From contig ONBT01000008.1 in the NCBI GenBank assembly GCA_900316075.1, positions 664 through 64,663 of the forward strand: a stretch of DNA of 64,000 nt. The letters are read 5' to 3'. The position numbers and the translations under genes are program-made. This document shows, one piece after another, positions 22,897 to 40,356 of the stretch (positions are counted from its first letter, which is position 1; each line of letters begins with the position of its first letter). The stretch is from an uncultured Lachnospiraceae bacterium. GTDB lineage: Bacteria; Bacillota; Clostridia; Lachnospirales; Lachnospiraceae. The notes beneath the pieces are model-generated. The model did no database searches, was not told the origin of the DNA, and worked only from the letters and a program-made list of their open reading frames with translations.

Positions 22897-23073
22897 ATAG
22901 ATAAGATACTGGTTTAGTTTAGGTGCTTGCCACCCATTTGAAAGCCTTCCACTTTCCCGCGAAGTCAAACTACTTCGTAGAGAGGATGCAGAGTTTTAAC
23001 GTAGCCAGTTCTACGAACGCGCGCTCCTTACGCGATGTGTCCTGCGGTGACAGGAAGAGATTTCTCCCTTGGC
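22858..23073 (-). ncRNA. unclassified structured RNA, copy 2 (5' leader of the nuclease-like ORF)
   Basis: The reverse complement aligns with copy 1 along its whole length. A 49-nt block is identical (22997-23045 versus 22014-22062). Confidence 0.5.
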
Positions 23074-23079
23074 ATCTTC

Positions 23080-23109
23080 AATCTACCACCCTCCTGTCGA
23101 TCCTGTCAA
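23080..23109 (-). promoter_or_regulatory. sigma-A type promoter with extended -10 (RNA copy 2 / nuclease leader)
   Basis: On the minus strand: TTGACA (23109-23104), 15-nt spacer, TGG, TAGATT (23085-23080). Confidence 0.55.
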
Positions 23110-23258
23110 TAACTCCCCGATTTTTTCCCAAAAATTTCATATTTTTTCAAATTCCCCCTAAACAAATATACGCAAATAGCCGAAATCCATTCTGAAAAGT
23201 ATCTTTATGTCCTTTTTTACAGGGTGTGGAAAAGACGGACAGAAAGAAGGAGCTATAT

Positions 23259-26200
23259 ATGTCTGGTAAACAGAACGGATTCTCGAAAATTCCTCTTGCG
23301 CGAAAGATAGAGGCCCTGGTCCTGACGGCGGTCACCGTCATTGCGTCGGCTTCCGTGGACTGGTCTTCCTTAACGGCAAGAGCGGAAGATACCTATCCGT
23401 ACGACGGTTCTCTGACTACTATGGTTGAGCTCGACCAGTCGAACCCGGTCATCAAGAGAGAGGTCATCGGAAAGGGCGGTAATCAGGCCGACAATACGCC
23501 CATGTATCTGGGAATCCACTCTGCCTACATGAATGTCCAGCTTTCAGAGGGGGCTACTGCCCACTATGAGGTGGCTATATATCAGAATTACGCAGATGAT
23601 GCGGATTATACGACCGCCACAAGTGTGCGCAGCGGAAACGAAATAGCTTCCGGTGATCTGACCCAATATGATAACGTGATTACTCTTTGGGACTGGCCGG
23701 ATGACAAGAACGCCCTTGTATACCTGGCGTCCGGCGAGAAGGCCACGATTGAAGTCACATTCTCCAATATTTCAGAAGGGGCCGTGATTTCATATGGTCA
23801 GGATTCAGAACAGAATTCTATAGCAGTCGGGACAAAGTATGAGAGTACTTTCTCGGATGCGGAGCTGGTTTCCGAAACCGGCCGTTCGAGCTATGTCACA
23901 GTTACGAACGGGGCGCCTATTGATTTCACGGGCGATTTCTCCCTGGCTCCGTCTTATAAGCGGAATATCTATTACAAGCTTTACGACAGTTCAGATAATA
24001 CGAATATCACGACGATTGCCAGCAGCTCCGACTATACAGCGACCTCCCATGCTTCTATAGCGGTAGATGACACACAAAAACTTCTGACGCCCGGTACCGA
24101 GTCAGGTGAAGATACCCTTCTGGTCTTTTCCGGCAACGATTCTTCGAAGTGGCTTAAGATTCCCGTGCGGATAGTTGCACCAAACATTAGTTATAGCAAT
24201 CTAACCTATAATGGAAATTCCGTTTCCGTGGTTACGCCGTCCTGCGGCCTTAATGTACTTACAGAAGGAACGGATTTCTTTGCGACCTATTCCGGTGAAG
24301 ACAGACAGGGGAATCCCTATAATGACGATGTAGCTTCCAATATCAGGAATGCCGGCGAATATACGGTAACCCTGTCCGGCGCGGCCGGAACAGACTATGA
24401 AGGCCTGACATATACTGAATCCTTTTCTATTGCTCCAAAGGATATAAATGAAGTAACTACCGGATCGGACATGCAGGTCGACCCGGCTGCGCTTTCAGTT
24501 ACCAATGCGGACGGAGCTTTGACTGATAACGGGCAGAACCTGATCAAGGATTATGACTACACGGTCGACAAGGTAGAGCGGGATGCGGCAGACAATGCGA
24601 AGTATTCCATCACGATTACCGGAAAGGGAAACTACACCGGGACCCGGGTTATCCAGTCGTCCAATTCGCTTAGCGGTACAGTGGATCTCAATACCCTTGT
24701 TAATAAGCTGATGCTTACGAAGGACAAAAATTCGTCAGAGGGGGCGATTTATGTCTTTGATGCAACGGCTCATAATGAACCCGGAATCTATTTTTACGAT
24801 AAAAACAACACACAGCTGAATCTAAAGCTGCACAATGATTACGAATACGCAATACGGGACAACAGCACACAGGCAGTCGTATATGACTCCGTGACGCCTT
24901 CGGCCATTACGTATGCCGGTGCTGTTAATGCAGGATACTATACAGTGGAAATCCGGGGACGGGGGAAGTATACCGGAACCATCAAATCGACCGACTTTTC
25001 AGATCAGGTCTTTCAGATTCAGCGGCGATCTCTAACCTACAACAATTTCATCGTGAAGATCAGTCCGGTTACATTCGTGGCTGATGACACCGTGCACCAG
25101 CCGACCAGTGTAACGGCAGAGTATCGTTACGGTACAGATGGCTCCAGCCGCTGGACCATGCGTCAGGGCATAGACTATGATTATGCTTTTGATCAAACGA
25201 AAGATGCGGGTACCTATGCGGTTCGGATTATTCCCCTGGAAACCGGAAATTTCTCCGGCGAGACCATAAACTTCTCAAACCATAAGCAGGCAGTGGCAGG
25301 AACATCAGTAGCCGATTTGGATGCCAATCCGGATTTGATTCATCCGGAATCCGTCGTCACATATGAGATTATTGCGTCTCTGGACAAGGCCGATGTCTGT
25401 CTGACAGACGGGAATACCTTCCCGGATGTCAATGTGGCCAATGTGGGAACCTCCTGGGTTTCCGCCTACTCGGCAGTCTATGATGGGAATGCAAAACAGC
25501 CTAAAGTTCAGGTGAAGATCGGGGCTCATGAACTGTCCCAGTACGTCAATGATACAACCACGCCCAATGCGGACTACAAAGTCATATATGATCCGACAAA
25601 AGAGACAAATGTAGGTGAGGCCAGCCTGATCATCCAGGGCATGAACAAGTTCGAGGGCCAGCCCATTCTGACGGTCAAATACACCATCACGCCGATTTCC
25701 CTGGCAGCCGGTGATCTGACGGTATCCAAAGAGAAGACATATGACCCTAATGGCAAGGCGGCTACTCTGGCGAACGGGGAATATTCTGTTTCTCATGACA
25801 AAAAATCTCTTTCAGAAGGAACGGACTTCGTTCTCGAGTATGAAAATAATACAGATCAAGGGGATGCTACGGTTACGGCCAAAGGTATCGGCAACTATAC
25901 CGGATCCGCAATCGCGGTTATGAAAATCAATCCCTTTGATTTTACGAAATCAACGGATTTTACAATTAAATCAATCCCGGATCAGTCCTATACCGGCAGC
26001 GAAATTAAACCCGATGAAAAGGGCTTGGTTGTCGTGCAATATAAAGGCTGGAAGACGCTGGAAAAGGATGTGGATTATAAGGTTACCTATGAGAAGGGAA
26101 CCAATATCAAGACCACAGATAAGGCAAAGGTTATTATTACAGGTCTTGGAAATTATACTGGCGTTAAATATACGACGTTCAGGATTAAGACCAAGAGCCT

Positions 26201-29200
26201 GCTGGATGGAGTAACCTATCGGATTGGAGGCACAAAGACCGGCACGCTTTCCGGAACGACCAATACCGGGTATACGGAAGAGTATACAGGTAAACCCAGC
26301 ACTCCCAATATTGAATTGAACAATGGTGCCCTGCGGAACGGAGTTGACTATACCGTTTCGACAAGTTCAGCCATCAGGGCCGGCAAACGGACCATTACAA
26401 TCACCGGTATCGGCAACTATGCCGGGACGGAAGCAAAACTGGTCTATGTCGTCATTCCTAAGGCATTGACCAGCGCGAAGGCTGTGCCGGTTGCATCCGG
26501 TGCCTCCACATCCGGAGCTATCCAGACCGGTACGGACGCCATCAAGCGCTACTACAAGGTTCAGATCGGAACGGGATCCAATGCAATTCCCCTGTCACCG
26601 GCTTCCATTACCTACAATGCAGACGGTACAGCAGAGTCTGTCACGGATTCCGGCGATTATACTTTCCAGTGGACGCAGCCTGACGGGACAGAACTCGCTG
26701 AAAATCAGATTCCGTCCATAGCAGGAGAGGGCTACACACTGAAGATCACCGGCCACGGGAATTACTCGGGAAGTGTTTCCGTCGACCGGGATGGCAGCAC
26801 AGCAAAGAACAAGCTCATGGTCGGCGCCTCAGTTGATGCGGTGGATGTCATCCATATCCTTGACCGCAGCGGTGATTCGGTACCTTATCTGGGCTCCAAT
26901 TTGCCTGCTGTTTACCTGGAATCAGGCAAGCTGACGTCGAAGACCTCCTCTGTAAATCCGTACAACCAGAATATTGTAGTCAGCGGCAACAGTATTGCAC
27001 TGGCAGGACCGGACTATGAGAACGGTCAGTACAAGAACGATACGGCGAAGGACTATACCGTCCATTTCGTTCCCGGTACAACAGCTTCAAAGGATGATGC
27101 GGCTGCAGAACTCAGCTCCCTGCCTGTCAATACACAGTTTAAGGTCCGTGTTTCTGCAGTGGCTGGCTCCAAGCTTTTCTTCGGCAGCCACCAGACGGAA
27201 CGTGTATTTACCGTATCAGCGACAGACCTTTCCGACTTCGGGAAGAAAATAACCGGCTATCGTGCCGGCCGGCTGACGGTATCCGACACAGCAGTAGCGG
27301 AGCCCTATGTCGTATCGAATGGCTCTGAAGTGTCTGCTGCGGCTATCTCCTACGAATACACCGGCAGCACCATCACGCCCAAGCTCAGTGTGACCTGCAC
27401 TCCGGTTACGCCGGACAGCAGCAAATTCAACGGGACTTTTGCGCCCATCAACCTCCTGTCCTACGCGACGGTCGCTCCGGCCACTATTCCGGCGGATGTA
27501 AAGAAAAATCAAAACTTCACCCTGACCGCCAATACAGGTTCCGGCTTCTCCGGCACTCTGACCATTCCGTACGAGGTGACGCAGAAAAAGATTACGGAGG
27601 ACATGATCAAGATGTCCCCGACGAGCGCGACCTACAATGGAAGCTCTCAGAAGAACGTCATCGATAGCGCTGTCACGGTCACATATAATAATAAACCCCT
27701 GACCAAGGATAAGGATTATACCCTCAGCTACTTCGAAGATGCGGACGGCAAGACATCGATTGATCCGAAGAGCGGTGACTTCACGAAGGCTCAGAGCATC
27801 TACATTCAGGTCTCTGGAACCGGAACGAATTTTGACACGACACCTGTCATGTATCCGGATCCTTTCGTTATTAAGGGGAAGAGTCTGTCCTCAGCAACCC
27901 TGACGCTGGGTGGAGACGTGACAAAACCGGCCGGCTCGGATATCTACTATGCCAAGTACAATGGCGGAAATGTCGTTTCTCCTACTGTCATTGTGACGGA
28001 CGGCAGCCGGACATTGTCCGGAACATTCAATAAATCGGATCCCGGCAAAGACTACTACTATGATCCGACGAGTGCAGACTCGCTGACCCAGACCGGCGGC
28101 GTTGGTCTGAAGACCGTCACCGTCAAAGGCCTCAACAATTACAGCGGTGATGCGGATCTGACGGAGAGCTTCTATGTATATGGAGAACTGTCAAAGGATG
28201 CATCTTTAGCAGGTTCATTTACAACTAGCGATGTAGCAGATTACAAAACATATGAACTTGATGAAAATGGCCATCTAATTACATCGGAAACCAAGACAGC
28301 CTTTGATTACACACAAGTTGAATTTAAACATGGGTCCGATATCTTGACCTATGGCACCCACTATACAGCATCTCTTAAGCGGGACGGGGTTTCGGTATCC
28401 GATATGTCTGTACCCGGTGTCTATACGATTACCTATACAGGCACAGGGATCCGCAATGGCTGCTATGGTACGGTGACGTTTAACAATATTACCGTCAAAG
28501 GTAATCTTGAGTATGCGACGATATCCGGGGTCAATGAGAATTACGATTTCAAAGGCAAGGATAATATTCCCGGCCCGACGAATATCGGTCAGATTACAGT
28601 AAAACTCGGTAACTATCCCATTCCTACCAAGGCGCTGAAGTTTACATCTTCATCGACGAATAATTATATTCCGACCGATGGAACAAAAGATGCGACAATC
28701 ACGGTAGAGGTCAATACCGACAACGACACGTACAAGAATCTTTATACAGGAAGTGTCACGGCCAACTACAATATCCGCTATGACCTGAGCAAAGTGACGA
28801 TTGCCAAAAAGTCGGGGGCGACGCTCTCTATGACAGATGATGCAGACACTTTGAAGTCAAAGATAGAAGTGACTTATAAGGGCCAGACGCTGGTTGAAAA
28901 TCAGGATTTCATATACAATCCGCAGCCGGAGTGGGTTTCCACCGGTTCTAATGCGACCCCTCGCCTTACCTTTACTCTCCAGCCGGACGCGAACCTCGAT
29001 CACTCCTACGGAAGTAAGTCCAGCACAGCTCTGACGGGAACCCGGAAACCGTTGAACAAGGATACGGCAAATGTATCCATGACTACTTCTCAGTCTACTA
29101 ACACCCAGGAGTACGATGGACAGGATCATTTCAATGACTTTGCCGGAAACGTCGAGATTACCTACGATGGTGAAACACTGAATCAGGGAACAGACTATGC

Positions 29201-32200
29201 GGTTCAGGTCACCAAGCAGGGAAGTTCCACATCTCTTAAGGCCGGTGATATGGTCAACGTCGGCACCTATGAGCTGAAGATTCGTGGTGTTGGCAACTAC
29301 AAGACAGATGCGGGAAAGGAACTGAAAGCGACATATACGATTACGTCCAGATCTTTGAAGGATAATTCCGCCACTATGGAATTGACAGATTCGGATGATA
29401 ATCAACTGTATTATTCAGGAACAGAACTGAACCCTGAATATACCGTAACTGATGATCTGGGGAACGTTCTGACAAAGGATGACTATACGATTAAGTATAC
29501 GGCCTCCGATTGGAATGCTGGAACAGAAGTAACAGTTACAGTTTCCGGTAAAAACAATTATAAGGATGATATTACTGACAAGTTCACAATTCGAAAGGTC
29601 AGTCTTGACAGTACGCTGATTAAGGCTACCTCGACTGCGGTTTACAATGGTCAGAAGCAAACGCCGACTGTTACTGTTCAACGTGTAGATGACGACGGGA
29701 CAGTTTTAGCAACCCTGAGTGATCCTACTGATTATAAGTTTACGCCTCCGACAGATCAGGACCTGACAAATGTGGGCAATCATACATGCTCGATTTCCGC
29801 AGGAACGAACAAGAACTATACGGGTACGAAGGACTTTGAATTCATTATCACCCCGCGTTCCCTTACAAGCAGTGGCATCGAAGTCATCCTCGACAATGCG
29901 GACGGCAAGTATGCCTATGCTAACGGCGACGCAGTAACGCCTACCGTTACCATCACAGATACAGGCCTTGCGACAGGCGGCACCACACCGCTTGTATCCG
30001 GTACAGACTACACAGCGACACCCGCCAACAATACCGTCTCTCATTCGAGCGATAATACTGACGGGGCAGCCCCGGTCGTACAGATCATAGGGAACGGAAA
30101 CTACGGTGGCGAAGTCGACAAGTATTTCCAGATCGGCACCGACCTATCAGACGCAACGGTAACACTGGATAAATCTACCCACGGCTATGACGGCGCGGCC
30201 TTCCGGCCGACGGTCACCGGTGTGACCCTGAATGGAAATGCGCTGACAGAGACGACCGACTACACCGGCCCGGCCTATACGACGACGGGCGGGGCAGTCC
30301 TGGCAGCCACAGAACCCACAGCCAAGGGTACTTACAAGGCAACCGTCACCGGGACGGGGGCTTACTTCGGTACGGCTTCTGCGGAGTATACGATTACGGC
30401 CCAGAATGCCAGCCGTGCAGACATTATAGTGGAATTCCAGAGCGATAGCGCTATGCAGACAGATGATAGTGGAGCGCCTTTCTGGTACTACACGGGTGAG
30501 GCCATCACGCCTGCGGTCAAAGTCTACTATTCGCCGGATGATGACACGAAGACGGAATTGACTGGCGGAGATGCAGACAGTACGACGGCGGACTATTACC
30601 TGACATATTCAAGCAATGTCAATGCCGGCGAAGAAGCCTCCATCACGGTCCACCTGATCAATAATTACGCGATCAGCGGGACGGAAGACCGGGTGGCCAC
30701 ATTTACAATCAAGCCGGTAGATATTAAAGATTTTTCGCTGACTCTCAATGGCGGCACAAAAGCTGACTTTGATGGCACGGCTCAGACGAAGGCCTTCACC
30801 CTTTCCGGAAAGAATCCGGCCGGGCAGACGGTTTCCAAGGTCTACAGCGGTACAGCCGTACAGATTGAAACCGAGGCAGCGAACGACGGCCTGAATGTCG
30901 ACTGGACGAACAATATCGCTCCCGGTACAGCCAACCTGCAGGTCAGCGGTACCGGCAACGGGAATTATACCGGTACGGCTCCTCTGGCAACGATGACCAT
31001 TGTCGGCGTGATCAGTGATGCAACGATAACGGTTGCCCGGTCCACGAATATCCAGGCGAAGGTGACGCCCAAAGTTACGGTCGACTTTAAGGACAAGTCC
31101 GGCACAAGCCATATCATCGATCCGGATTCCGGTTGGTACGATGTTACATATCGGGCGGATACCGGGAACTGGAAGACAGCGACAAAGGTCGAAGTCACTG
31201 TCAAGGGCGTCGAACCCCTGCTGGGTATGACTTATATCACCGGAACCAAGAAAGCCTATGGTGAACTGACGGATGAACCGACAGGGCTTTTCCTGACAGG
31301 GTACAATGCAACTTACCAGTACACCGGACAGCCGATCAGCCCTTCCGGCCTTGTGGTTTCAGGCAGTGCAATGCAGGGCGGCAATATATCCGTGGTCGGC
31401 TTTATTTACCATAGCGACAAGGATGACAGTGCCTGCATTATTCCCGGTACGGTAACTATGTCAGCCATTGTATCTTATACAGACAGTACCGGAACTACAA
31501 AGACGACGGAGGTTTCCGAAGACGCAAACGGCAATCAGGCAAAGTTCCGGATCCTGAAGCGTTCTCTGAAGTCCTGCGATATCATAGGACCTGTCGATGT
31601 ACGGTACAATGGCAGCGCCCAAGAGCCGGTCGTTTCCATCAGCGCAGACGGAAATCCGCTGACGCCCGGAAAGGATTATAAGATTACGGGCTATGTGAAC
31701 AATACAAAGCCCGGCACGGCTACAGTCTCTATTACGGCAGGCGACAACGGCTATGTTTCCGGTAAGACGTCAAAGACATTCACGATTTTTGTCGCCAATG
31801 TGACCGGTCTCACAGCGACATCCGTTTCCACGACTTCTGCGAAGATATCCTGGAGTGCGAGCCCGAGTGTTGACGGTTACCTCCTGACCTACGAGAACAC
31901 AAAGGGTGTCCAGAAGGTTCAGACAAAGAACCTGACCTATACGGTGACAGATCTTCCGACGGACGATTCAACCCAGGTGGCGGTTCAGGCCTTTGTAAAT
32001 GAAGGCAGCACCCCGACCTATTTTGGTGATCCGAATACGATATTCGCGAAAACCGCTTTGACGGCAACGACGACGACCGGAAGCTCTTCAGGCGGAAGGA
32101 ATACGGTCCGTTGGAGTACGGTTTCCGGAGCCAACGGGTATGAGATCTGGCGGGCGACGAGGAAGGATGGAACTTACGAATTGCTTACGACAGCCACGGC

Positions 32201-32360
32201 TTCGGCAACGAGCTATACGGACTCCCATGCGACGGTCGGGACGACTTATTACTACAAAGTTCGCGCTTACAAGATCAGTACGACAGCCGGGTCGACGTTC
32301 GGACAGAAGTACGGTTACAGTAATTTCTCGAATTCCGTTGCCATCATGACCGTGAACTGA
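23259..32360 (+). CDS. giant secreted surface protein with >20 MBG/YDG-type repeats and two C-terminal Fn3 domains
   Basis: Start at ATG 23259 with aaggag 7 nt upstream. Signal peptide ends at ..SLTARAED. Repeats of ~80-90 aa match the pattern Y.G....P.V......L..G.DY.V.Y..N...G.A.V.I.G.GNY.G. Fn3-like segments VTGLTATSVSTTSAKISWS and VRWSTVSGANGYEIWR. No C-terminal sorting signal. Confidence 0.85.
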   Translation: MSGKQNGFSKIPLARKIEALVLTAVTVIASASVDWSSLTARAEDTYPYDGSLTTMVELDQSNPVIKREVIGKGGNQADNTPMYLGIHSAYMNVQLSEGATAHYEVAIYQNYADDADYTTATSVRSGNEIASGDLTQYDNVITLWDWPDDKNALVYLASGEKATIEVTFSNISEGAVISYGQDSEQNSIAVGTKYESTFSDAELVSETGRSSYVTVTNGAPIDFTGDFSLAPSYKRNIYYKLYDSSDNTNITTIASSSDYTATSHASIAVDDTQKLLTPGTESGEDTLLVFSGNDSSKWLKIPVRIVAPNISYSNLTYNGNSVSVVTPSCGLNVLTEGTDFFATYSGEDRQGNPYNDDVASNIRNAGEYTVTLSGAAGTDYEGLTYTESFSIAPKDINEVTTGSDMQVDPAALSVTNADGALTDNGQNLIKDYDYTVDKVERDAADNAKYSITITGKGNYTGTRVIQSSNSLSGTVDLNTLVNKLMLTKDKNSSEGAIYVFDATAHNEPGIYFYDKNNTQLNLKLHNDYEYAIRDNSTQAVVYDSVTPSAITYAGAVNAGYYTVEIRGRGKYTGTIKSTDFSDQVFQIQRRSLTYNNFIVKISPVTFVADDTVHQPTSVTAEYRYGTDGSSRWTMRQGIDYDYAFDQTKDAGTYAVRIIPLETGNFSGETINFSNHKQAVAGTSVADLDANPDLIHPESVVTYEIIASLDKADVCLTDGNTFPDVNVANVGTSWVSAYSAVYDGNAKQPKVQVKIGAHELSQYVNDTTTPNADYKVIYDPTKETNVGEASLIIQGMNKFEGQPILTVKYTITPISLAAGDLTVSKEKTYDPNGKAATLANGEYSVSHDKKSLSEGTDFVLEYENNTDQGDATVTAKGIGNYTGSAIAVMKINPFDFTKSTDFTIKSIPDQSYTGSEIKPDEKGLVVVQYKGWKTLEKDVDYKVTYEKGTNIKTTDKAKVIITGLGNYTGVKYTTFRIKTKSLLDGVTYRIGGTKTGTLSGTTNTGYTEEYTGKPSTPNIELNNGALRNGVDYTVSTSSAIRAGKRTITITGIGNYAGTEAKLVYVVIPKALTSAKAVPVASGASTSGAIQTGTDAIKRYYKVQIGTGSNAIPLSPASITYNADGTAESVTDSGDYTFQWTQPDGTELAENQIPSIAGEGYTLKITGHGNYSGSVSVDRDGSTAKNKLMVGASVDAVDVIHILDRSGDSVPYLGSNLPAVYLESGKLTSKTSSVNPYNQNIVVSGNSIALAGPDYENGQYKNDTAKDYTVHFVPGTTASKDDAAAELSSLPVNTQFKVRVSAVAGSKLFFGSHQTERVFTVSATDLSDFGKKITGYRAGRLTVSDTAVAEPYVVSNGSEVSAAAISYEYTGSTITPKLSVTCTPVTPDSSKFNGTFAPINLLSYATVAPATIPADVKKNQNFTLTANTGSGFSGTLTIPYEVTQKKITEDMIKMSPTSATYNGSSQKNVIDSAVTVTYNNKPLTKDKDYTLSYFEDADGKTSIDPKSGDFTKAQSIYIQVSGTGTNFDTTPVMYPDPFVIKGKSLSSATLTLGGDVTKPAGSDIYYAKYNGGNVVSPTVIVTDGSRTLSGTFNKSDPGKDYYYDPTSADSLTQTGGVGLKTVTVKGLNNYSGDADLTESFYVYGELSKDASLAGSFTTSDVADYKTYELDENGHLITSETKTAFDYTQVEFKHGSDILTYGTHYTASLKRDGVSVSDMSVPGVYTITYTGTGIRNGCYGTVTFNNITVKGNLEYATISGVNENYDFKGKDNIPGPTNIGQITVKLGNYPIPTKALKFTSSSTNNYIPTDGTKDATITVEVNTDNDTYKNLYTGSVTANYNIRYDLSKVTIAKKSGATLSMTDDADTLKSKIEVTYKGQTLVENQDFIYNPQPEWVSTGSNATPRLTFTLQPDANLDHSYGSKSSTALTGTRKPLNKDTANVSMTTSQSTNTQEYDGQDHFNDFAGNVEITYDGETLNQGTDYAVQVTKQGSSTSLKAGDMVNVGTYELKIRGVGNYKTDAGKELKATYTITSRSLKDNSATMELTDSDDNQLYYSGTELNPEYTVTDDLGNVLTKDDYTIKYTASDWNAGTEVTVTVSGKNNYKDDITDKFTIRKVSLDSTLIKATSTAVYNGQKQTPTVTVQRVDDDGTVLATLSDPTDYKFTPPTDQDLTNVGNHTCSISAGTNKNYTGTKDFEFIITPRSLTSSGIEVILDNADGKYAYANGDAVTPTVTITDTGLATGGTTPLVSGTDYTATPANNTVSHSSDNTDGAAPVVQIIGNGNYGGEVDKYFQIGTDLSDATVTLDKSTHGYDGAAFRPTVTGVTLNGNALTETTDYTGPAYTTTGGAVLAATEPTAKGTYKATVTGTGAYFGTASAEYTITAQNASRADIIVEFQSDSAMQTDDSGAPFWYYTGEAITPAVKVYYSPDDDTKTELTGGDADSTTADYYLTYSSNVNAGEEASITVHLINNYAISGTEDRVATFTIKPVDIKDFSLTLNGGTKADFDGTAQTKAFTLSGKNPAGQTVSKVYSGTAVQIETEAANDGLNVDWTNNIAPGTANLQVSGTGNGNYTGTAPLATMTIVGVISDATITVARSTNIQAKVTPKVTVDFKDKSGTSHIIDPDSGWYDVTYRADTGNWKTATKVEVTVKGVEPLLGMTYITGTKKAYGELTDEPTGLFLTGYNATYQYTGQPISPSGLVVSGSAMQGGNISVVGFIYHSDKDDSACIIPGTVTMSAIVSYTDSTGTTKTTEVSEDANGNQAKFRILKRSLKSCDIIGPVDVRYNGSAQEPVVSISADGNPLTPGKDYKITGYVNNTKPGTATVSITAGDNGYVSGKTSKTFTIFVANVTGLTATSVSTTSAKISWSASPSVDGYLLTYENTKGVQKVQTKNLTYTVTDLPTDDSTQVAVQAFVNEGSTPTYFGDPNTIFAKTALTATTTTGSSSGGRNTVRWSTVSGANGYEIWRATRKDGTYELLTTATASATSYTDSHATVGTTYYYKVRAYKISTTAGSTFGQKYGYSNFSNSVAIMTVN

Positions 32361-32384
32361 CCGGTAGAAGCAAAAAAAAAATAA

Positions 32385-32393
32385 TGCTATAAT
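32385..32393 (+). promoter_or_regulatory. extended -10 element (TGcTATAAT) just upstream of the sortase gene
   Basis: TG at 32385-86 and TATAAT at 32388-93, 10 nt before ATG 32403. No SD visible, suggesting a very short or absent leader. Confidence 0.4.
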
Positions 32394-32402
32394 GACGCCG
32401 TC

Positions 32403-33539
32403 ATGAAAGAAAAGAACACTTTCAAAATCGGCGAATATACCTTCACTTCCTTCCACGAATACCGGGACGGAAAAGAGGACTTAAAGAAGATTTCCATCAT
32501 CCAGGAAAAGCTGGATATACAGGATCCGGAGGTGGCCGTCCGCATATACAGGGACATTCGGGACGGCCGTCTCTCCTTCAAGACGGACATCGGAAATGAC
32601 TTCGCCCGCCACATTTCTGACATTGTGGCCGAGAAGTCAAAAGGACTCATTGCCGACCGGGAAGTCGTGGAGGAAGCCGACAAGAGGACCGGCTATACGC
32701 GCTGGATCGGCATCGGGCTGACCTGCGCGGCGGCGGCCCTCTTTGTCTATTTCGGCGGCCAGCAGTATCTGAACTGGCAGCGGACGAAGCAGGCGGAGGA
32801 GCTCCGGGCCCAGAAGGCGGCCGCGATTTCTGAGGGTAGCCTTTCGGCGGCAGATGAGGATGCGGCTGCCTCAATAGTGACGGGCGGGGGGACGAAATTT
32901 ACCCAGCCGGAGCGGGACCCCTTTGCCATGTCCACGGTGACGGATCCGAATGCGGCGACCATCCTGCCCGAGTACGAGACCCTCTACGAGCGGAACCATG
33001 ACCTCGTGGGCTGGCTCACGATTCCGGACACGGAAATCGACTACCCGGTCGTGCAGACGACGGACAATGAATATTATCTGAAGCGGAACTTCGACGGGGC
33101 CTCCGATTCCAACGGGACCCTCTTCGCCGACTACCGCTGCGGCATTCTCAATGCCTCGACGAACACCATCATCTACGGCCACAATATGAACTCGGGCCAG
33201 ATGTTCGGCAGCCTGTCCGACTACTACGAGGACCCGGCCTACTACAGCGCCCACCGGACTGTGAATTTCAACACGATCTACGAGAAGCGGACCTACGAGA
33301 TCGTGGCTGTCTGCCTTTCCGACGTCAAGTACCAGGACTCGGACGACTACCGCTACTACAACTTCATCAACGCCACGAACGAGACCGAGTGGGACGCCTT
33401 CGTCGAGAACGTCCGCTCCACGACCATGTACCCCGAGGACCTGGACCTGTCCCCCGGCGATGAGGTCCTGACCCTGTCCACCTGTGACCACTACAAGGAC
33501 AACGGCCGCCTCTTCCTGGTGGCGAAGCGCATTACATGA
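32403..33539 (+). CDS. srtB: class B sortase with ~100-aa cytoplasmic N-terminal extension
   Basis: GWLTIPDTEIDYPVVQTTDNEYYL, LFADYR, IIYGHNM, LTLSTCD and RLFLVAKR motifs. One TM segment (IGIGLTCAAAALFVYF). Confidence 0.85.
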   Translation: MKEKNTFKIGEYTFTSFHEYRDGKEDLKKISIIQEKLDIQDPEVAVRIYRDIRDGRLSFKTDIGNDFARHISDIVAEKSKGLIADREVVEEADKRTGYTRWIGIGLTCAAAALFVYFGGQQYLNWQRTKQAEELRAQKAAAISEGSLSAADEDAAASIVTGGGTKFTQPERDPFAMSTVTDPNAATILPEYETLYERNHDLVGWLTIPDTEIDYPVVQTTDNEYYLKRNFDGASDSNGTLFADYRCGILNASTNTIIYGHNMNSGQMFGSLSDYYEDPAYYSAHRTVNFNTIYEKRTYEIVAVCLSDVKYQDSDDYRYYNFINATNETEWDAFVENVRSTTMYPEDLDLSPGDEVLTLSTCDHYKDNGRLFLVAKRIT

Positions 33540-33815
33540 ATAATGATGAAATGTAAAGCCCGAGGAAACCATTTTGCCCCGATTAGCTATGAATGCCCCC
33601 ACAACTTGTGTTGCGGGGGTAAAATTTTGCAAAATACAGTGGAAATAGTGGAGAACCTGTTTTATAATATACAAGATATTGTAGGGCCCGGTGCGTCCAG
33701 TGGACGCACGTTTTCGGGCCGACCGAAGCGAAGCGTAGACCTTAGTGTGTGCGTCCGAAGACGCGGCGCTTTATATTATTCATGAGAAACAGAAGGCTTC
33801 ATTCCGCAGAAAGGA

Positions 33816-35426
33816 GTGAAGGCAAGGATGACAGAGAATGTATTTGTCCGACTCTTTAAAGATATCGGGGGTAAGGTTTCCGCAATGAAGAAGGGTACGA
33901 AGATCGGCTGGCTGCTCATCGCCATATCCATCGTCTTTTCCCTGTGGGTGGTCGTGAGTCAGAGCAGCAAGGCTGTGGACCAGGACATCACAAATGCAGG
34001 TTTTATCCTCAGTTCCGACGGAAAGACACTGACAAAGTATACTGGTGGGGCGACAACCATCAGCTCCAGTCAATCGTCATATGACGATGGAAAGCTGCCG
34101 GATACAGTAACCGCGATAGGCACAAACGCCTTTGCAGATTCCGGCGTTGAAGTGATTGATCTGCCGGAGACGGTGACGACTCTTGAGGACGGGGCTTTTG
34201 CCGGGGCTCAGCTTTTGACTAGCATTTCCGTTCCCGGTGTGACTGCGATCCCGGATCAGGCTTTCAATCAGTGTTATGAATTGACTGCATTCACGGTACC
34301 GGATGCGGTGACAAGCATCGGAAGTTCGGCTTTTGCCGGGACTGAAATTACGACAATCAATGTTCCGGCAAATTGCAATCCGGCAACGGGCGCATTTGAC
34401 GGGGCAGAGCAGCTGACGGCGATTACGGTCTCAAGCGGGAACAGCAACTACCGATCCGATGGAACGAATCTCTATAGTTCAACGAAACTGATCCGGGTGC
34501 CGGAAGGAACCAAGACCGCGACAATGGCAGTTTCGGACGGAACGACCGGGATTGCGGCCGGCGCCTTCAAAGGAGCAAAGAATGTCACGGAAGTAGATTT
34601 GCCTGCCTCGGTAACAACTATCGACACCGGTGCCTTTACGGATTCCAAGATATCAAAGCTGGTCATTAATAATAAAGATGCTGTAATAAACGATACAGGT
34701 ACCCTTCCGGCTGGTGCGGCTGTTTGGGGCTACACAGGAAGTACGGCTGAAACGTACGCTTCTGACAATGGATATACATTTGTACCATTAGGCGGTAATA
34801 CCACTGTTGACCCCAACAATGGCGGCAACTCCGGCGGCGGCAGTTCCGGCGGCGGATCTTCGTCCGGGGGCGGTAGCAGTTCTGGCGGCGGCGGATCTTC
34901 GTCCGGGGGCGGCAGCAGCTCGGGTGGCGGCGGTTCTTCATCCGGCGGTGGCAGCAGCTCGGGCGGCGGGTCGTCGTCCGGCGGCAATTCCGGCGGGAAC
35001 ACCGGAAATAACACCGGCAACAATACAGGAAACAACACGGGTAATAACACCGGCAACACAGGCAATAATACCGGGAACAACACAGGCAACAATACAGGGA
35101 ACAACGGCAATACCGGAAATAACGGAGCTACGCCGGGTACCAATACCGGAAACAATACGGGAAATACCGGGACGAACAACGGCGGTACGAACGGCACAAA
35201 CAACGGAGGCACGGCCCAGCCGGGCGTCCGGGTGCCTTCCAATACAGGCTCCACCGGAAATACCCACACGGCGGACAATACGCCGAAGACGGCGGACGGG
35301 GACCTCGATCCCCGCTTCGTCATCGCCTTGGCGGTCTTCGCAGCAGGCCTTGCGACCATCATTCTGAGCCGCCGCCAGCGGGCGGTCATCGTACAGAAGG
35401 CCGGGAACTCCAGGCTGGACGACTGA
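33816..35426 (+). CDS. BspA-type leucine-rich-repeat surface protein with low-complexity stalk and C-terminal cell-wall sorting signal
   Basis: LRR_5-like repeats (IGTNAFADSGVEVIDLPETVTTLEDGAFAG..) followed by a G/S and then an N/T/G stalk. C-terminus is NTPKTAD, a hydrophobic segment and SRRQR. Start uncertain among GTG 33816, ATG 33828 and ATG 33885. Confidence 0.8.
   Translation: MKARMTENVFVRLFKDIGGKVSAMKKGTKIGWLLIAISIVFSLWVVVSQSSKAVDQDITNAGFILSSDGKTLTKYTGGATTISSSQSSYDDGKLPDTVTAIGTNAFADSGVEVIDLPETVTTLEDGAFAGAQLLTSISVPGVTAIPDQAFNQCYELTAFTVPDAVTSIGSSAFAGTEITTINVPANCNPATGAFDGAEQLTAITVSSGNSNYRSDGTNLYSSTKLIRVPEGTKTATMAVSDGTTGIAAGAFKGAKNVTEVDLPASVTTIDTGAFTDSKISKLVINNKDAVINDTGTLPAGAAVWGYTGSTAETYASDNGYTFVPLGGNTTVDPNNGGNSGGGSSGGGSSSGGGSSSGGGGSSSGGGSSSGGGGSSSGGGSSSGGGSSSGGNSGGNTGNNTGNNTGNNTGNNTGNTGNNTGNNTGNNTGNNGNTGNNGATPGTNTGNNTGNTGTNNGGTNGTNNGGTAQPGVRVPSNTGSTGNTHTADNTPKTADGDLDPRFVIALAVFAAGLATIILSRRQRAVIVQKAGNSRLDD
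34818..35215. repeat. in-frame short tandem DNA repeats encoding (GGSSS)n and (NTGN)n
   Basis: Reiterated ggcggcagcagctcgggyggc and aacaccggmaacaat-type units inside the LRR gene. Confidence 0.7.
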
Positions 35427-35491: not shown

Positions 35492-35530
35492 GGGCATACA
35501 GTATAAATGCTTCAAGGAAAACGTCCGCCC

Positions 35531-38110
35531 CTACTTCGCCTGGTCCAGGACCGTGACGAAGGTGTTGCCGGCGGCGGCGAAGGCCGCCGCCGCATCGCTC
35601 TTGCCCATCTTCTTGGTGTCGCCCGTGGCCGGGTCAAAGAGAACCACATTGGCTGTGTCGTAGGCCGAGATGATGGAAGCCGTCCCGTCCGCAAACTCAG
35701 CGTACACAGGCTCTCCCCGACTCACGTAGTAGAGGACTTCCTGCAATGTAGCGCCGGTCAGGTTCAGGACCTTGCGGTCCGACAGGGTGGCGGTCATGAT
35801 GGAAGAGACCGACTGGCCCTGCTCGAGCAGGGTGTCCACGTCCACATTCTCTCCGAAGGCCGAAAGCATGGCGGCCAGGGCCTGGCCCCGGGAAGTCTTT
35901 GCGTTCGAGGCCGAAAGCTTGCCGCCGGACTTGCCGGTGGACGGCAGGCCCCGCTTCCAGATGTAGTTCTGGGAATTGTCGATGACAATGCCCATCTGGG
36001 TATCCGCGATGGAGACCGCCTCGGTCACGTCATAGGTGGCCGCCACAACCCGGCTGCCGACATAGACGAAGTACTGCTCCTCCACGTCGGAAACCTGGAT
36101 GTCGATGTCGTGGCCTTTGGCCATGAGGACAAGGGGCGCTGTCGAGGCCGAGATGCCGGCCACGGTCTCGTCGCTTCCGAGCTTTGCCATGACCAGAGTA
36201 GCCGAGATCCCCTTGCCCTCGGCGGCCGCTCGCTTGAGGCTCACGGCCCGGTTCACCTCGCCCTCTGCGTTCCGGATGGTGTCCCCGGCCGCCGCAACGA
36301 ACTGCCCGTCCTCTCCCTTCGTGACCCGGGTCAGGTTCAGGGCGGCGTCCTCCTTCTTGGAATCCGTCACATAGAGGCCGTCCTTCTGGTAGGTCATGAG
36401 GACATCGTTCGACGCATTCGAAGCCGAGATGATTTCCAGCTCATACATGGGGTAGAGGGTGAGGCCGGAGGCCGACTCGGTGATGTCGCCCTCCCGGACC
36501 CGCCCGTACACGAGGTCGTCGTCCATGAAGGCCAGCACCCGGAGCTCTTCCCCGGATTCGGGCGCCAGAGTCCGGTCCGTACCCGCCTCGAGGTCTTTGA
36601 TTACTATCGTGCCTTCCCTGCCGCCGATGGCGCCCCCGTCGAGGGCCACATAGCGGCGGGAGTCGGAAACCGCGTACTCGGACTCGGCCAGGCCGTAGGC
36701 AATCGTGTTGATGGCCATGGTCGAGAGGTTGACGTGGACCAGCGAGCCCTCTTCCATGATGTAGAAGTCGTCGGTGGAAGACTTGTAAATGAGCTCGGAG
36801 AAGTCGGCGTTCAGAATCTGGAAGGACTTCTTCGACTTGATGAAGGTCTGCTCGGTCGTGTGGCCGGTGGTGGCGTCGTAGCGCATGACGTCGATGCCGC
36901 AGAGGCCCTCGTGCCGCCCGGCGTTCATGTAGCCGTAGACGACGAAGTCCACGGTTCCGGTCTCGTCAATCGAAAGAATCTTGATGGCGTGCTCGTTCCA
37001 GAGGGCGCGCGCATCGGCCTCCTTGCCTGCGCCCGAATATTCGTTGAACGAGAATAATGTAATGAACTGCCCTTTGGATTCGACGTACTCGTACAGCTCG
37101 CCCCCCTGTACGAAGGCCACAATGCGGCCGTTCTCGTTTGACCGCATCTGGTAGTCGGAGGGGATGACGCCGAGAGTCAGACTGTTCTCGCTGACCCGGG
37201 AGGCAATGGGGGTGAAGCGCTCGGTCATCCGCCGGTCGTAGTCCAGGAGGAACATGCGCTCGGTCCCGTAGCGGACCTTGAAATATTCACTCACGTCATA
37301 GATGTCCCCGGCGTCATCCCGCATGGTATAGTACATGGTCAAAGCGGAATAATTGTCCGAGATGTCGTTCCACTCGAAGATGGTGTCCCCGGACTTCTCG
37401 CCTGAAAAGCCCGCCCAGCAGACGTCGGCAGCCGTGGACTTGATCGTGACCTCGGCCAGGCCGGTTGTGTCGGTGGAAGCCGCGTCCTCGGCCGGCTCGA
37501 TATAGGTGGCAAGGGCCCCGGAGTTTCCGTCCCGGGCCTTCTGGGAGAAGTCCTCCGCAAAGGCCGCAATCTGGTCCTGGTGGGCGTTCTTCGGCATGAT
37601 TATTCTGGTGTAGAAGAAGAGCTCCCGCCCGTCGGCCTTCATATTGAGGACGAAAAGGTACTCGTCCCCGTCCTCGATCAGGTTCTCAAGCTCGGGAGAG
37701 ACCGTCACGACCCCGTCCACGGGAGCCGGCACGTCTTGTATCTTCGTCTCCGCAATCTTCCGGGAGGTATCAAGGGAGCGGATCTGGTAGGAAATGTCGG
37801 AAATCTTGTTCCCGTAAGTCTTGATATTGATGGGCAGAATCCGGGTCTCGTCGAGGGGGGCGACCGCATCCCGCATGTAGCAGGCGTCCATCTCGGCCGT
37901 GTAGGCCCGGAGGGAGCTGATTTCCCGGCCCCCCGCCGTCAGGGAGACCGTGGGCAGGGTGGGGCCGGACATCTCGGACGTCGTGTCCTTCGTGTGGAAG
38001 TTTATTATTATAGAGAATAATATAAGGCACCCCAGAAATACGGCCAACAGCAGCAATACGCGCTTGATCAGTCCCTTGGGCAGGCCCTTGGTTCGAAAGG
38101 TAAGATTCAC
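35531..38110 (-). CDS. hypothetical 859-aa membrane-anchored extracytoplasmic protein
   Basis: GTG start with gaagga SD. One N-terminal TM segment (VLLLLAVFLGCLILFSIII). No family recognised. Confidence 0.7.
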   Translation of the reverse strand: MNLTFRTKGLPKGLIKRVLLLLAVFLGCLILFSIIINFHTKDTTSEMSGPTLPTVSLTAGGREISSLRAYTAEMDACYMRDAVAPLDETRILPINIKTYGNKISDISYQIRSLDTSRKIAETKIQDVPAPVDGVVTVSPELENLIEDGDEYLFVLNMKADGRELFFYTRIIMPKNAHQDQIAAFAEDFSQKARDGNSGALATYIEPAEDAASTDTTGLAEVTIKSTAADVCWAGFSGEKSGDTIFEWNDISDNYSALTMYYTMRDDAGDIYDVSEYFKVRYGTERMFLLDYDRRMTERFTPIASRVSENSLTLGVIPSDYQMRSNENGRIVAFVQGGELYEYVESKGQFITLFSFNEYSGAGKEADARALWNEHAIKILSIDETGTVDFVVYGYMNAGRHEGLCGIDVMRYDATTGHTTEQTFIKSKKSFQILNADFSELIYKSSTDDFYIMEEGSLVHVNLSTMAINTIAYGLAESEYAVSDSRRYVALDGGAIGGREGTIVIKDLEAGTDRTLAPESGEELRVLAFMDDDLVYGRVREGDITESASGLTLYPMYELEIISASNASNDVLMTYQKDGLYVTDSKKEDAALNLTRVTKGEDGQFVAAAGDTIRNAEGEVNRAVSLKRAAAEGKGISATLVMAKLGSDETVAGISASTAPLVLMAKGHDIDIQVSDVEEQYFVYVGSRVVAATYDVTEAVSIADTQMGIVIDNSQNYIWKRGLPSTGKSGGKLSASNAKTSRGQALAAMLSAFGENVDVDTLLEQGQSVSSIMTATLSDRKVLNLTGATLQEVLYYVSRGEPVYAEFADGTASIISAYDTANVVLFDPATGDTKKMGKSDAAAAFAAAGNTFVTVLDQAK

Positions 38111-38259: not shown

Positions 38260-40356
38260 ATGAGCGCGAAAAGCACGATAAAAAAGATATTCAAGATGCC
38301 GGAGGCCTCCCGGAAGCCGCCTTCCTTCCTGGATCGGCATGCCCTGCTCTTTCATATTCCCTTTGCCCTGCTCCTCTGCTTCGTCATTGAAGCCATCAGC
38401 CGCCACTCGGCCCTGGACTCCCTCCGCTTCATCGTAAACGAGCCGGTGGCCTATATCTACAATTCCTATATTATTTTTGTATTTCTGACCATCTGCTTCC
38501 TGACCAGGCGGCAGGCCTTCGTCCGCATCCTGGTGGCGGCCCTCTTTATCGCCATGGGAATCGCGAACGGCATCATTCTCCTGAACCGGGTCACCCCCTT
38601 CGGTTTTTCGGATATCGGCATGATCGGGGACCTTTTGACCATGCAGAACACGGGCTACATGTCGAAGGGCGAGAGCATCGTCATCATCGCGGCCATCGTG
38701 GTCTTCTGGTACATCATGAAGCGGAAGTTCCACTCCTGCAAGCGGATTGTTCCCCGTATGCCAATGAAGTTCCGCCTGCTGTTTTTCGTCCTGGCCTTTG
38801 CCAGCCTGCCCCTGGTCACCACGGGCCTGCAGTCGACGAGGCTCATCGACTCCTACTTCGGAAACCTGGCCCGGGGCTACCTCGACAACGGCTACCTCTA
38901 CGGCTTCGCCATGAGCGCCTTCGGCCGGGGCATGAGCACACCCAAGAAGTACAGCGCAGACACCGTGGCGAAGATCACGAAGGAAGATGACCGCTACGCC
39001 GAAGAAAATCAGACCGACTTCAACGCCACTTCGGGTCCCAATATCGTCGTCATGCTGCTGGAGTCCTATCTCGACCCTTCGGAGGTCAAGTTCCTCGACA
39101 CCAGCGAGGACCCCAATCCCTTCTTCCACTACCTGGAGCAGAACTATTCTACCGGCCACCTGACCGTTCCCGTTGTCGGGGCCGGGACCTGCAATACCGA
39201 GTTTGAAATCCTGACCGGCATGTCCTGCCGCTTCTTCGGGCCCGGGGAATATCCCCAGAAGACGATTCTGAAAAAGACCGACTGCGAGTCCTTCGCGGCG
39301 GACCTGCACACGGTGGGCTACGGAACCCATGTGGTTCATAATAATGGAGGCAATTTCTATTCCCGCCGCAACGCCTTTTCCATGATGGGCTTTGACTCCT
39401 TTACATGTAAGGAAATGCTGGACATCACGGAGTATAATCCTTTGAATTCCTGGCCTCTGGACTACGTCCTCACCGACGCCACGAAAGAAGCCATGGACAA
39501 TACACCTCAGTCCGACTTCGTCTATACGATCACGGTCGAGACCCACGGGGACTACCCGACTTATAAGGTCTTTGACAACCCGGAGATCAAGGTCAAGGCG
39601 CGGGGAAAAGACGAGGAGACGAAATACAAGTGGGAATACTACGTCAATATGATTCATGACCAGGACAAGTTTCTCAAGTCCTATATTGATATGCTCTCCA
39701 AGCGGAACGAGCCCACCCTCTTCATCGCCTTCGGCGACCACATCCCGACCATGGGCCTCACGGACCGGGAACTGAAGTCCGGGGACACCTACAAAACCAA
39801 GTATATCACCTGGAACAATTTCGGCATGGAAAAGCACGACCAGGACCTGACCTCCTACCAGCTGGTCAGCCAGTACTTGAACCGCCTGGGCTTCCACGAC
39901 GGGACCATGCTTTCCTACAACCAGCGGCAGATGGCGGACGGGGTGGCATTTACGTCAAACGCTTATTCCGACAATCTGGAGATGCTCCAGTACGACCTCC
40001 TCTACGGCAAGCGCTACGCCTACGGGGACGACAAGGACAAGTATCCGGCTTCCAATATCGTCATGGGCACCCACGACATCACGGTGGACCGGGCCTACCT
40101 CTTCGGGGGCAAGCTCCATATCTACGGGGACGGCTTCACCAAGTGGTCCAAGGTCTTCGTCAACGGGCACAAGGTCTCAACCGCCTACCAGTCGGGCCAG
40201 CACCTGACCATCGACGGGGAAGACATCAAGAATGCGGACCTCATCCAGGTCAAGCAGATCGGCTCCTCGGACACAGTCTTCCGGGAGTCGAACGAACTCG
40301 TCTATATCGTCCATTCGAACGCCGCCCGAATGACGGCGATACCCTCGCTGGATTAG
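38260..40356 (+). CDS. LTA synthase family (sulfatase-type) membrane protein
   Basis: Five N-terminal TM segments, then a sulfatase domain with VVMLLESY and GAGTCNTEFEILTG (nucleophile Thr region). Confidence 0.85.
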   Translation: MSAKSTIKKIFKMPEASRKPPSFLDRHALLFHIPFALLLCFVIEAISRHSALDSLRFIVNEPVAYIYNSYIIFVFLTICFLTRRQAFVRILVAALFIAMGIANGIILLNRVTPFGFSDIGMIGDLLTMQNTGYMSKGESIVIIAAIVVFWYIMKRKFHSCKRIVPRMPMKFRLLFFVLAFASLPLVTTGLQSTRLIDSYFGNLARGYLDNGYLYGFAMSAFGRGMSTPKKYSADTVAKITKEDDRYAEENQTDFNATSGPNIVVMLLESYLDPSEVKFLDTSEDPNPFFHYLEQNYSTGHLTVPVVGAGTCNTEFEILTGMSCRFFGPGEYPQKTILKKTDCESFAADLHTVGYGTHVVHNNGGNFYSRRNAFSMMGFDSFTCKEMLDITEYNPLNSWPLDYVLTDATKEAMDNTPQSDFVYTITVETHGDYPTYKVFDNPEIKVKARGKDEETKYKWEYYVNMIHDQDKFLKSYIDMLSKRNEPTLFIAFGDHIPTMGLTDRELKSGDTYKTKYITWNNFGMEKHDQDLTSYQLVSQYLNRLGFHDGTMLSYNQRQMADGVAFTSNAYSDNLEMLQYDLLYGKRYAYGDDKDKYPASNIVMGTHDITVDRAYLFGGKLHIYGDGFTKWSKVFVNGHKVSTAYQSGQHLTIDGEDIKNADLIQVKQIGSSDTVFRESNELVYIVHSNAARMTAIPSLD

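Follow-up and report, generated by a model that had tools for sequence, protein, structure and literature searches.

We analysed a stretch of 64,000 nt (hereafter the window) from a draft genome (2.53 Mb, 54.9% G+C) whose nearest named relatives are uncultured rumen Lachnospiraceae. Between positions 23259 and 35426, the window carries three genes on the + strand. They code for a giant secreted protein of 3,033 aa, a class B sortase (SrtB), and a protein with leucine-rich repeats (LRR protein). By gene order and spacing, the three genes are predicted to form an operon which is conserved across at least 18 genera of rumen and gut Lachnospiraceae. The LRR protein ends in a cell-wall sorting signal. 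The giant, which is the largest surface protein of the cell, has neither a sorting signal nor a recognized anchoring module. Our tentative reading, which we rate somewhat short of an even chance, is that the giant is held on the cell via its C-terminal Fn3 domains, with the wall-anchored LRR protein as adaptor. The features of the three genes are listed below, with the basis of each assignment in parentheses (HMM, hidden Markov model; ORF, open reading frame; Ig, immunoglobulin). A slash within a motif marks a cleavage site.

23259–32360, + strand: gene for the giant secreted protein, 3,033 aa, without sorting signal (ORF and translation, ribosome-binding site)
23259–23390, + strand: signal peptide, residues 1–44, with the conserved c-region SVDWSSLTARA/ED
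23391–24188, + strand: head domain, residues 45–310, rare and highly variable (database search, Pfam)
24186–31787, + strand: stalk of at least 23 predicted Ig-like repeats of about 85 aa (iterated HMM, AlphaFold2)
31791–32357, + strand: two C-terminal Fn3 domains (Pfam fn3, 36.2 bits; charge profile)
32403–33539, + strand: gene for the predicted class B sortase, 378 aa (TIGR03064, Pfam Sortase, PDB matches)
32403–32693, + strand: cytoplasmic N-terminal domain of the sortase, residues 1–97, about 95 aa (HMM, AlphaFold2)
33828–35426, + strand: gene for the BspA-type LRR protein, sortase substrate and candidate adaptor (Pfam LRR_5, AGGAG)
33975–34793, + strand: LRR domain, the variable part of the candidate adaptor (allele comparison)
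34818–35215, + strand: low-complexity (GGSSS)n/(NTGN)n stalk, of a length which varies between alleles (translation)
35277–35426, + strand: cell-wall sorting signal consisting of NTPKTAD, 18 hydrophobic residues, and the tail RRQRAVIVQKAGNSRLDD (translation)

The order of giant gene, srtB, and gene for a short LRR substrate was first seen in the three closest loci (L004 to L006). It recurs in all genomic contexts that were inspected for relatives of either protein, giant or sortase (L084, L086 to L089, L171 to L176, L179, and L181). For a survey at the genus level, one genome from each of 400 genera of the family was searched with the sortase, and in 144 of the 400 a homologue was found at E ≤ 1e-40. 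For the 20 best matches, which have 40–59% sortase identity, 16 kb of surrounding sequence were fetched; one contig proved too short, so that 19 loci could be assessed. A giant of 2,079–3,612 aa is encoded directly upstream of srtB, and a sorting-signal protein of 380–770 aa directly downstream, in 18 of these 19 loci. The sole exception (L193) has a gene for 678 aa in place of the giant. From the stop codon of the giant gene to the ATG of srtB, the gap has a median of 12 nt and does not exceed 19 nt in 13 of the 18 loci, and the median gap between srtB and the sorting-signal gene is 53 nt.

The downstream sorting-signal protein matches a BspA-type LRR HMM in 16 of the 18 loci. In the other two (L190, 432 aa; L195, 772 aa) it is not an LRR protein and lacks any Pfam domain, with the gene order being kept. 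Three distant giants, which had been chosen regardless of their genomic context, all adjoin a sortase gene. In one distant variant (L180), an LCP gene and the genes for another sortase and for a 207-aa protein with SPKTG stand ahead of the gene for an anchorless giant of 4,668 aa. Loci L173 and L185 are from a cultured isolate, Lachnospiraceae bacterium XBD2001. The pair of SrtB and LRR substrate occurs without any giant in most of the SrtB clade, and SrtB together with a large LRR substrate is common in the Lachnospiraceae. The new part is the trio with an anchorless giant, for which no description was found in searches of full-text literature.

In consensus scans, which yield pattern matches only, neither of the two intergenic gaps within the trio shows a terminator, and a site resembling a promoter precedes the LRR gene (33640–33668). 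The gap between the giant gene and srtB in the window (32361–32402) is 42 nt long, above the 12-nt median of the other genera. It contains TATAAT 9 nt before the ATG of srtB and no clear ribosome-binding site.

The encoded proteins

The giant is encoded within a single ORF that spans 23226–32360. Its likely start is the ATG at 23259, located 6 nt after GAAGGAG, which results in 3,033 aa. The N-terminus is a Sec-type signal peptide with a K/R n-region, a hydrophobic core, and the site ARA/ED. A c-region motif, S-[VI]-[DN]-W-[ST]-x-L...A/E, is shared by the signal peptides of the giants from the window and from loci L005, L006, and L171 to L173, and by those of the homologues P0154 to P0189. The head domain that follows has no Pfam match and only five relatives among 1.84 billion representative proteins. 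All of these reside in giants of 2,900–3,090 aa, and they are 29–42% identical, apart from one near-identical allele.

With an HMM that was iterated from a single repeat, at least 23 copies of an 85-aa unit are detected between residues 310 and 2843; their signature is Y-x-G...P.V.V...DY...G.GNY.G...F.I. An earlier note on this DNA, which was made from the sequence alone, had described more than 20 repeats of the MBG/YDG type. While that count is borne out, the assignment to MBG had to be rejected. No MBG family of Pfam is matched at E ≤ 1, neither by the whole protein nor by six overlapping pieces, and the AlphaFold2 model of one repeat (computed from 70 repeat copies) is a small all-beta, Ig-like sandwich with a mean predicted local distance difference test score (pLDDT) of 95.9. 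When this model was compared to PDB with Foldseek, there was no fold match at E ≤ 1e-3; only weak Ig-like matches were returned (Big_3, PKD, Rib, cadherin-type), the best having a template modelling (TM) score of about 0.5. Because MBG families are not matched and the modelled fold is Ig-like with only weak PDB matches, the repeats are best described, as far as the model goes, as Ig-like stalk modules of an uncatalogued type.

The only Pfam family found in the giant is fn3 (36.2 bits), which matches two stretches in the last 189 aa. The protein ends in ...SNSVAIMTVN, immediately after the Fn3 domain. There is no NCBIfam match. No SLH, CWB2, LysM, GW, choline-binding, or LPXTG module was detected with Pfam and NCBIfam at E ≤ 1, in the whole protein or in pieces, and the C-terminus has no hydrophobic stretch, no PxT/TPKT-type motif, and no basic tail. 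These results agree with the description in the earlier note of a signal peptide, two Fn3 domains, and an end devoid of sorting motif, hydrophobic tail, or known anchor. The net charge of the giant is −98, that of its last 100 aa is +5. It is the only protein with more than 1,700 aa in the genome, and the only one with this type of repeat or of terminal Fn3 domain; there are no paralogues.

The absence of a sorting signal holds for all of about 45 homologous giants. The five database giants with a related head domain have one or two Fn3 domains at their C-terminus, and an Fn3 end without sorting signal was also found in 27 of 28 further homologues, retrieved with the C-terminal third, and in all 18 giants from the genus survey. 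Their typical last strand is ...YYYKVRAY...S..V.VTVK-COOH. The exception is the distant homologue P0184 (4,409 aa), which has SLH domains at its end instead of Fn3. SLH is a known non-covalent wall-binding module. Because P0184 carries SLH at this position, we regard the C-terminus as the site of retention functions in the giant family; related fibres of other lineages therefore use a known non-covalent wall anchor. The giants are all acidic, with a net charge of −2 to −9 per 100 aa, and so are the adaptors. In 27 of 28 giants, the final 100 residues carry a net positive charge, in the range of +4 to +32.

The sortase gene was correctly recognized in the earlier note as being of the SrtB type and immediately downstream of the giant gene. 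The protein reaches 153.8 bits against the class B model TIGR03064, marginally above the cut-off of 153.75, and also matches Pfam Sortase. Its 15 best PDB matches are all SrtB enzymes (top E-value 1.7e-38), and the motifs YGHNM, TLSTC, and GRL align with YGHRM, TLSTC, and GRL of Bacillus anthracis SrtB (2oqw). By these matches, the encoded enzyme is assigned to the class B sortases. Residues 1–181 have no PDB match. A membrane helix at about residues 100–118 follows a cytoplasmic N-terminal domain for which AlphaFold2, with 89 sequences, predicts a beta-hairpin and three helices (pLDDT of about 95 for residues 10–78). No match to this domain was found in Pfam, among PDB sequences, or among PDB folds. 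A cytoplasmic domain of about 100 aa had been noticed before and had been called unusual. The domain is confirmed; it is not unusual, as an HMM of it matches all 156 SrtB ORFs from the collected related loci, and it appears to be shared throughout the SrtB clade of the Lachnospiraceae. With the full-length sortase as query, more than 2,800 matches were found among database proteins at E ≤ 1e-40.

The LRR protein probably starts at the ATG at 33828 rather than at the GTG at 33816, with 33885 being possible as well; AGGAG is located 11 nt before ATG 33828, and the gene calls of orthologues start at the same Met. Pfam LRR_5, which represents the BspA type, is matched in two stretches with 106.1 bits (threshold 27.7). 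A signal peptide is followed by one LRR domain, by the (GGSSS)n/(NTGN)n stalk, which is likely a wall-spanning spacer, and by a sorting-signal tail. This tail consists of NTPKTADGDLDPR, an 18-residue hydrophobic stretch (FVIALAVFAAGLATIILS), and RRQRAVIVQKAGNSRLDD, which starts with RRQR. The N-terminal signal peptide and the tripartite sorting signal, the latter already seen in the earlier note, are thus both present, and no other ORF of the genome has a tail of this motif type.

In 80 genome loci which were retrieved with the sortase as query, the product of the sortase-adjacent gene nearly always has ...TPKTGDGIHPK near its end, followed by a hydrophobic stretch and a basic tail. Over all loci, the distinct tails encoded beside related sortases, about 70 in number, comprise TPKTG (37), TPKTA (13), TPTTG (9), SPDTG (4), TPQTG (2), and SPKTG (2). 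The sampled substrates of related sortases are all LRR_5 proteins. Because sortase-adjacent substrates share this type of tail, [ST]P[KTQ]T[GA] is assigned as the predicted sorting motif of this SrtB clade. We strongly infer that SrtB cleaves the LRR protein after the Thr of TPKT/A and links it to peptidoglycan. The cytoplasmic tail of the substrate, RRQRAVIVQKAGNSRLDD (35370–35426), has more residues than is usual, and its sequence is conserved from allele to allele (...VIV....LDD). The N-terminal domain of the sortase and this tail are both cytoplasmic, and one may recognize the other.

Allelic variation and retention of the giant

Two metagenome contigs (L086 and L088) carry other alleles of the cassette. 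Their left flank shows 99.5–99.6% DNA sequence identity to the window up to position 23384–23388. This left edge of the hypervariable block corresponds to the end of the signal peptide of the giant. Both contigs rejoin the window at 35529 with 89–97% identity, the right flank being 89% identical to L088 and 97% to L086. Because of this difference, the variable zone may sometimes reach into this flank, which carries the genes for an 859-aa protein and an LtaS-like sulfatase. A further search of metagenome contigs returned only one more close relative.

Between alleles, protein sequence identity is 30–45% for the giants, 72–97% for the sortases, and 48–64% for the LRR proteins. The signal peptide of the giant is 82–100% identical across alleles with mature parts that are only 30–45% identical, and in L084 its amino acids are preserved through synonymous DNA changes. 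The alleles are patchworks of similar and dissimilar segments. When the window is compared to L088, the middle of the giant gene shows 88% DNA sequence identity, whereas the regions for the first 1,180 and the last 650 residues cannot be aligned as DNA. The sortase gene and the signal peptide of the LRR protein follow with 95% DNA identity, then the LRR domain with about 41% protein identity, and finally a nearly identical LRR stalk and sorting signal. In the comparison of L084 and L086, the last 400 residues of the giant (98–99%), the sortase (90%), and the LRR protein (92%) are similar, and the rest of the giant differs. The ratio dN/dS between the window and L088 is 0.28 for the mid-region of the giant and 0.09 for the sortase, which indicates faster evolution of the giant and is no proof of positive selection. 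Judged from these comparisons, the whole 12-kb cassette appears to be a deeply diverged, mosaic allelic locus within the species. Such variation is as expected of an exposed structure under diversifying selection by phages, host antibodies, or differing ligands.

The giant is a very acidic, Sec-secreted rod which consists of a variable N-terminal head, about 25–30 Ig-like modules, and one or two terminal Fn3 domains. In the reading that we tentatively favour, the three-gene operon would build a two-part surface fibre. The wall-anchored LRR protein would act as an adaptor which grips the cell-proximal, net-positive C-terminal Fn3 of the giant. As is usual for adhesins of Gram-positive bacteria, the head would point outward, and docking would take the place of the sorting signal that the giant itself lacks. 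The coupling of the giant stop codon to the srtB start would bring sortase and adaptor to the membrane site where the C-terminus of the giant emerges. The architecture, with its variable head, long stalk, and conserved cationic end module, agrees with a cell-borne adhesin that has its C-terminus close to the cell, as do the strict linkage to a membrane sortase and the small wall-anchored partner that is always present.

Capture by the LRR protein had been listed in the earlier note among the ways of retaining the giant. It is consistent with the conservation of the operon in 18 of 19 relatives, with the adaptor being always short (380–770 aa), and with a net-positive end in 27 of 28 giants when all giant bodies and all adaptors are acidic. 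Also, the exchange between the window and L088 replaces both the LRR domain and the C-terminal ~650 aa of the giant, with the nearly unchanged sortase gene in between. Several results weigh against a specific contact. Between the window and L174, the LRR domains are 80% identical but the last 200 aa of the giants only 48%, so that there is no tight covariation. Charge complementarity between the two proteins, which had seemed to exist with 11 pairs (rho −0.67, p = 0.024), vanished with 28 (rho −0.13, p = 0.5) and was withdrawn as evidence for docking. The charge of the adaptor instead tracks the acidity of the giant body (rho 0.58, p = 0.001, n = 28). The sorting-signal partner is not an LRR protein in two of the 18 genera and is an unrelated 207-aa protein in L180; docking, if it occurs, can thus not require the LRR fold itself. 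Anionic wall polymers could serve a cationic Fn3 equally well as binding partner, and the contact between giant and adaptor is derived from synteny and architecture. Because neither sequence nor charge covariation supported a specific contact, we treat docking to the LRR protein as the best-fitting but unproven explanation.

The affinity for wall polymers just mentioned could by itself retain the giant, its cationic terminal Fn3 binding to teichoic or lipoteichoic acids or to wall polysaccharide, with SrtB and the LRR protein being a separate, co-expressed adhesin. The net positive end of nearly all giants (up to +32) is in line with this, as are the lack of covariation between giant and adaptor, the partner not always being an LRR protein, the LtaS-like gene that stays close to the cassette, and the SrtB/LRR-substrate pairs which exist without a giant in most of the clade. 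We nevertheless consider this explanation unlikely. It does not account for the tight linkage of giant gene and srtB in 18 genera, with a median gap of 12 nt, nor for the reduction of the adaptor to one small domain exactly where a giant is present, and the positive charge at the end of the giant from the window is modest (+5).

Equally unlikely in our view is that the giant is released as a soluble or matrix protein, which might for example bridge cells to particles, and that the linkage to srtB reflects co-regulation only. The signal peptide is cleavable and none of the domain libraries contains an anchoring module that matches the giant. However, the giant is built like a cell-borne adhesin, its variable head being followed by a long Ig stalk and by a conserved module at the end. 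In at least 18 genera, the gene order and the coupling to a membrane sortase are strictly kept, and a distant homologue has SLH domains at the very end where the other giants have Fn3.

The sortase might also link the Thr of the adaptor motif TPKT to a lysine in the Lys-rich terminal Fn3 of the giant, by a chemistry of the pilus type. Class B sortases can be pilin polymerases (PMC7900414), the stop codon of the giant gene is tightly coupled to the start of srtB, and the terminal Fn3 is rich in Lys, with a nearly invariant end (...VTVK-COOH). Such a link would, however, consume the single sorting signal of the adaptor and would leave the pair off the wall, and the adaptor has a long stalk that resembles a spacer across the wall. 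We judge a Thr–Lys link quite improbable.

A membrane tether through an uncleaved N-terminal signal-anchor would be in line with the strong conservation of the signal region relative to the mature parts, with its amino acids being kept despite synonymous changes, and with the recurrence of S-[VI]-[DN]-W-[ST]-x-L in the c-region across the family. But the hydrophobic core has only about 15–17 residues, which include a Glu, and is followed by cleavage sites of the AXA type (ASA/S, ARA/E). For L086 and L088, a recombination breakpoint at the end of the signal peptide explains the conservation, and the variable head would be buried at the membrane. We thus consider a signal-anchor very improbable. 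Polymerization of the giant by the sortase, which had also been proposed in the earlier note, is unlikely to the point of being excluded in practice, as the giant lacks a sorting signal that it could donate.

Chromosomal setting of the cassette

Upstream of the cassette, a gene for a PBECR4 nuclease is encoded on the opposite strand. Downstream, the LRR gene is followed by a convergent gene for a membrane protein and then by the gene for an LtaS-like sulfatase:

35531–38110, − strand: 859-aa protein with one N-terminal membrane helix and without Pfam match
38260–40356, + strand: LtaS-like sulfatase

An ORF on the + strand at 35507–37057 was rejected as a gene, being a shadow of the 859-aa gene. 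The 859-aa gene and the LtaS-like gene adjoin the cassette in many strains and related genera (L084, L086 to L089, and L172 to L175).

The region had initially been taken for a surface island. This could not be upheld, and a foreign island is rejected: the cassette sits at a conserved chromosomal position, between ABC-transporter/BioY/PBECR4 genes on one side and the 859-aa/LtaS-like genes on the other, in many strains and related genera. The G+C content of the cassette (46–54%, compared to 54.9% for the genome) goes with the giant gene's own composition. The intergenic DNA at 22909–23094, upstream of the giant gene, is near-perfectly conserved; L086 has in addition an inverted match to it with 81% identity. 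Between 22000 and 36000, no Rfam family was matched at E ≤ 1, and thus neither a cyclic diguanylate (c-di-GMP) riboswitch nor another known RNA was found.

A second sortase resembling SrtB is encoded on contig C39 of the same genome (5.7 kb; locus L002), together with an LCP (LytR_cpsA_psr-like) gene and a 261-aa protein that ends in SAKTGSSFP, a membrane helix, and RKYVA. The contig stops at the sortase. Its layout matches that of L180, where the same arrangement precedes the anchorless giant of 4,668 aa.

Significance and comparison with known systems

Among the bacteria associated with fibre and mucus in the rumen and gut, Lachnospiraceae are dominant. To our knowledge, their attachment to particles, hosts, and other cells is largely unknown. 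The trio is conserved and open to testing, and through it the cell would display its largest surface protein without the usual covalent anchor, and strain XBD2001 as a cultured carrier makes experiments feasible. Should the adaptor model be true, sortase-dependent display extends to proteins without sorting signals outside of the cellulosome. By its extreme allelic variation within one species, the cassette stands out as a likely target of phages or host antibodies and as a possible locus for strain typing. The TPKT[AG]D motif together with its sortase could serve for surface display in Lachnospiraceae, which are hard to engineer.

Taking all elements together, the trio may represent a widespread and undescribed display system of the Lachnospiraceae. 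An SrtB with a cytoplasmic domain of unknown fold would anchor a small adaptor to the wall, and the adaptor would capture a signal-less fibre of about 100 nm by its terminal Lys-rich Fn3, either non-covalently or via a new sortase-made link. The cassette as a whole would be a hypervariable, recombining surface-antigen locus. In this full form the proposal is possible but doubtful.

The sortase can be compared to SrtB of Clostridioides difficile, which acts on (S/P)PXTG substrates (PMC4155245, PMC4591827). The C. difficile enzyme (4ux7) matches the catalytic domain of the sortase from the window (E = 1.3e-23). Both are clostridial class B sortases with a PxTG-type motif, rather than LPXTG or NPQTN, and the C. 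difficile substrates are surface adhesins. What differs from C. difficile is the predicted motif, [ST]P[KTQ]T[GA]D, the first position of which is Thr and the fifth often Ala. The sortase has an extra cytoplasmic domain of about 95 aa, and its gene shares a predicted operon with a giant that is not a substrate. While the substrates of C. difficile SrtB are under the control of c-di-GMP, the corresponding riboswitch was not found here.

In function, the nearest parallels are the FCT region described below and Ruminococcus flavefaciens, where the sortase-anchored ScaE holds anchorless scaffoldins via cohesin–dockerin pairs (PMC5301203, PMC4081043). There, as would be the case here, a small sortase-anchored adaptor holds a very large anchorless protein; both systems are from rumen Firmicutes and have clustered genes. 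The resemblance to ScaE is functional only, as Pfam scans of the three proteins revealed neither cohesin nor dockerin. Here, the terminal Fn3 and the LRR domain are the candidates for docking, and we infer their interaction.

Class B sortases perform polymerizing chemistry of the pilus type in the FCT pilus region of Streptococcus pyogenes (PMC7900414). Like the cassette described here, the FCT region is a hypervariable cassette of about 11–16 kb with conserved flanks and deeply differing alleles, which codes for fibre proteins and their own class B-type sortase. FCT pilins, however, all have sorting signals and are covalently polymerized, whereas the large part of the present system is a single chain of 3,000 aa without such a signal. 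As every subunit of a sortase-assembled pilus carries a sorting signal, with the backbone pilin supplying a lysine, the giant does not qualify as a donor subunit.

The cassettes of SrtB and a large BspA-type LRR protein from Waltera, Acetatifactor, and other Lachnospiraceae are also similar. They share the SrtB clade, the N-terminal domain of the sortase, the TPKTG-type signal, and the LRR_5 family. In those cassettes, the LRR substrate has 1,400–2,100 aa and no giant precedes the sortase. In the clade under study, by contrast, the substrate is down to a single LRR domain, and an anchorless giant has been added upstream.

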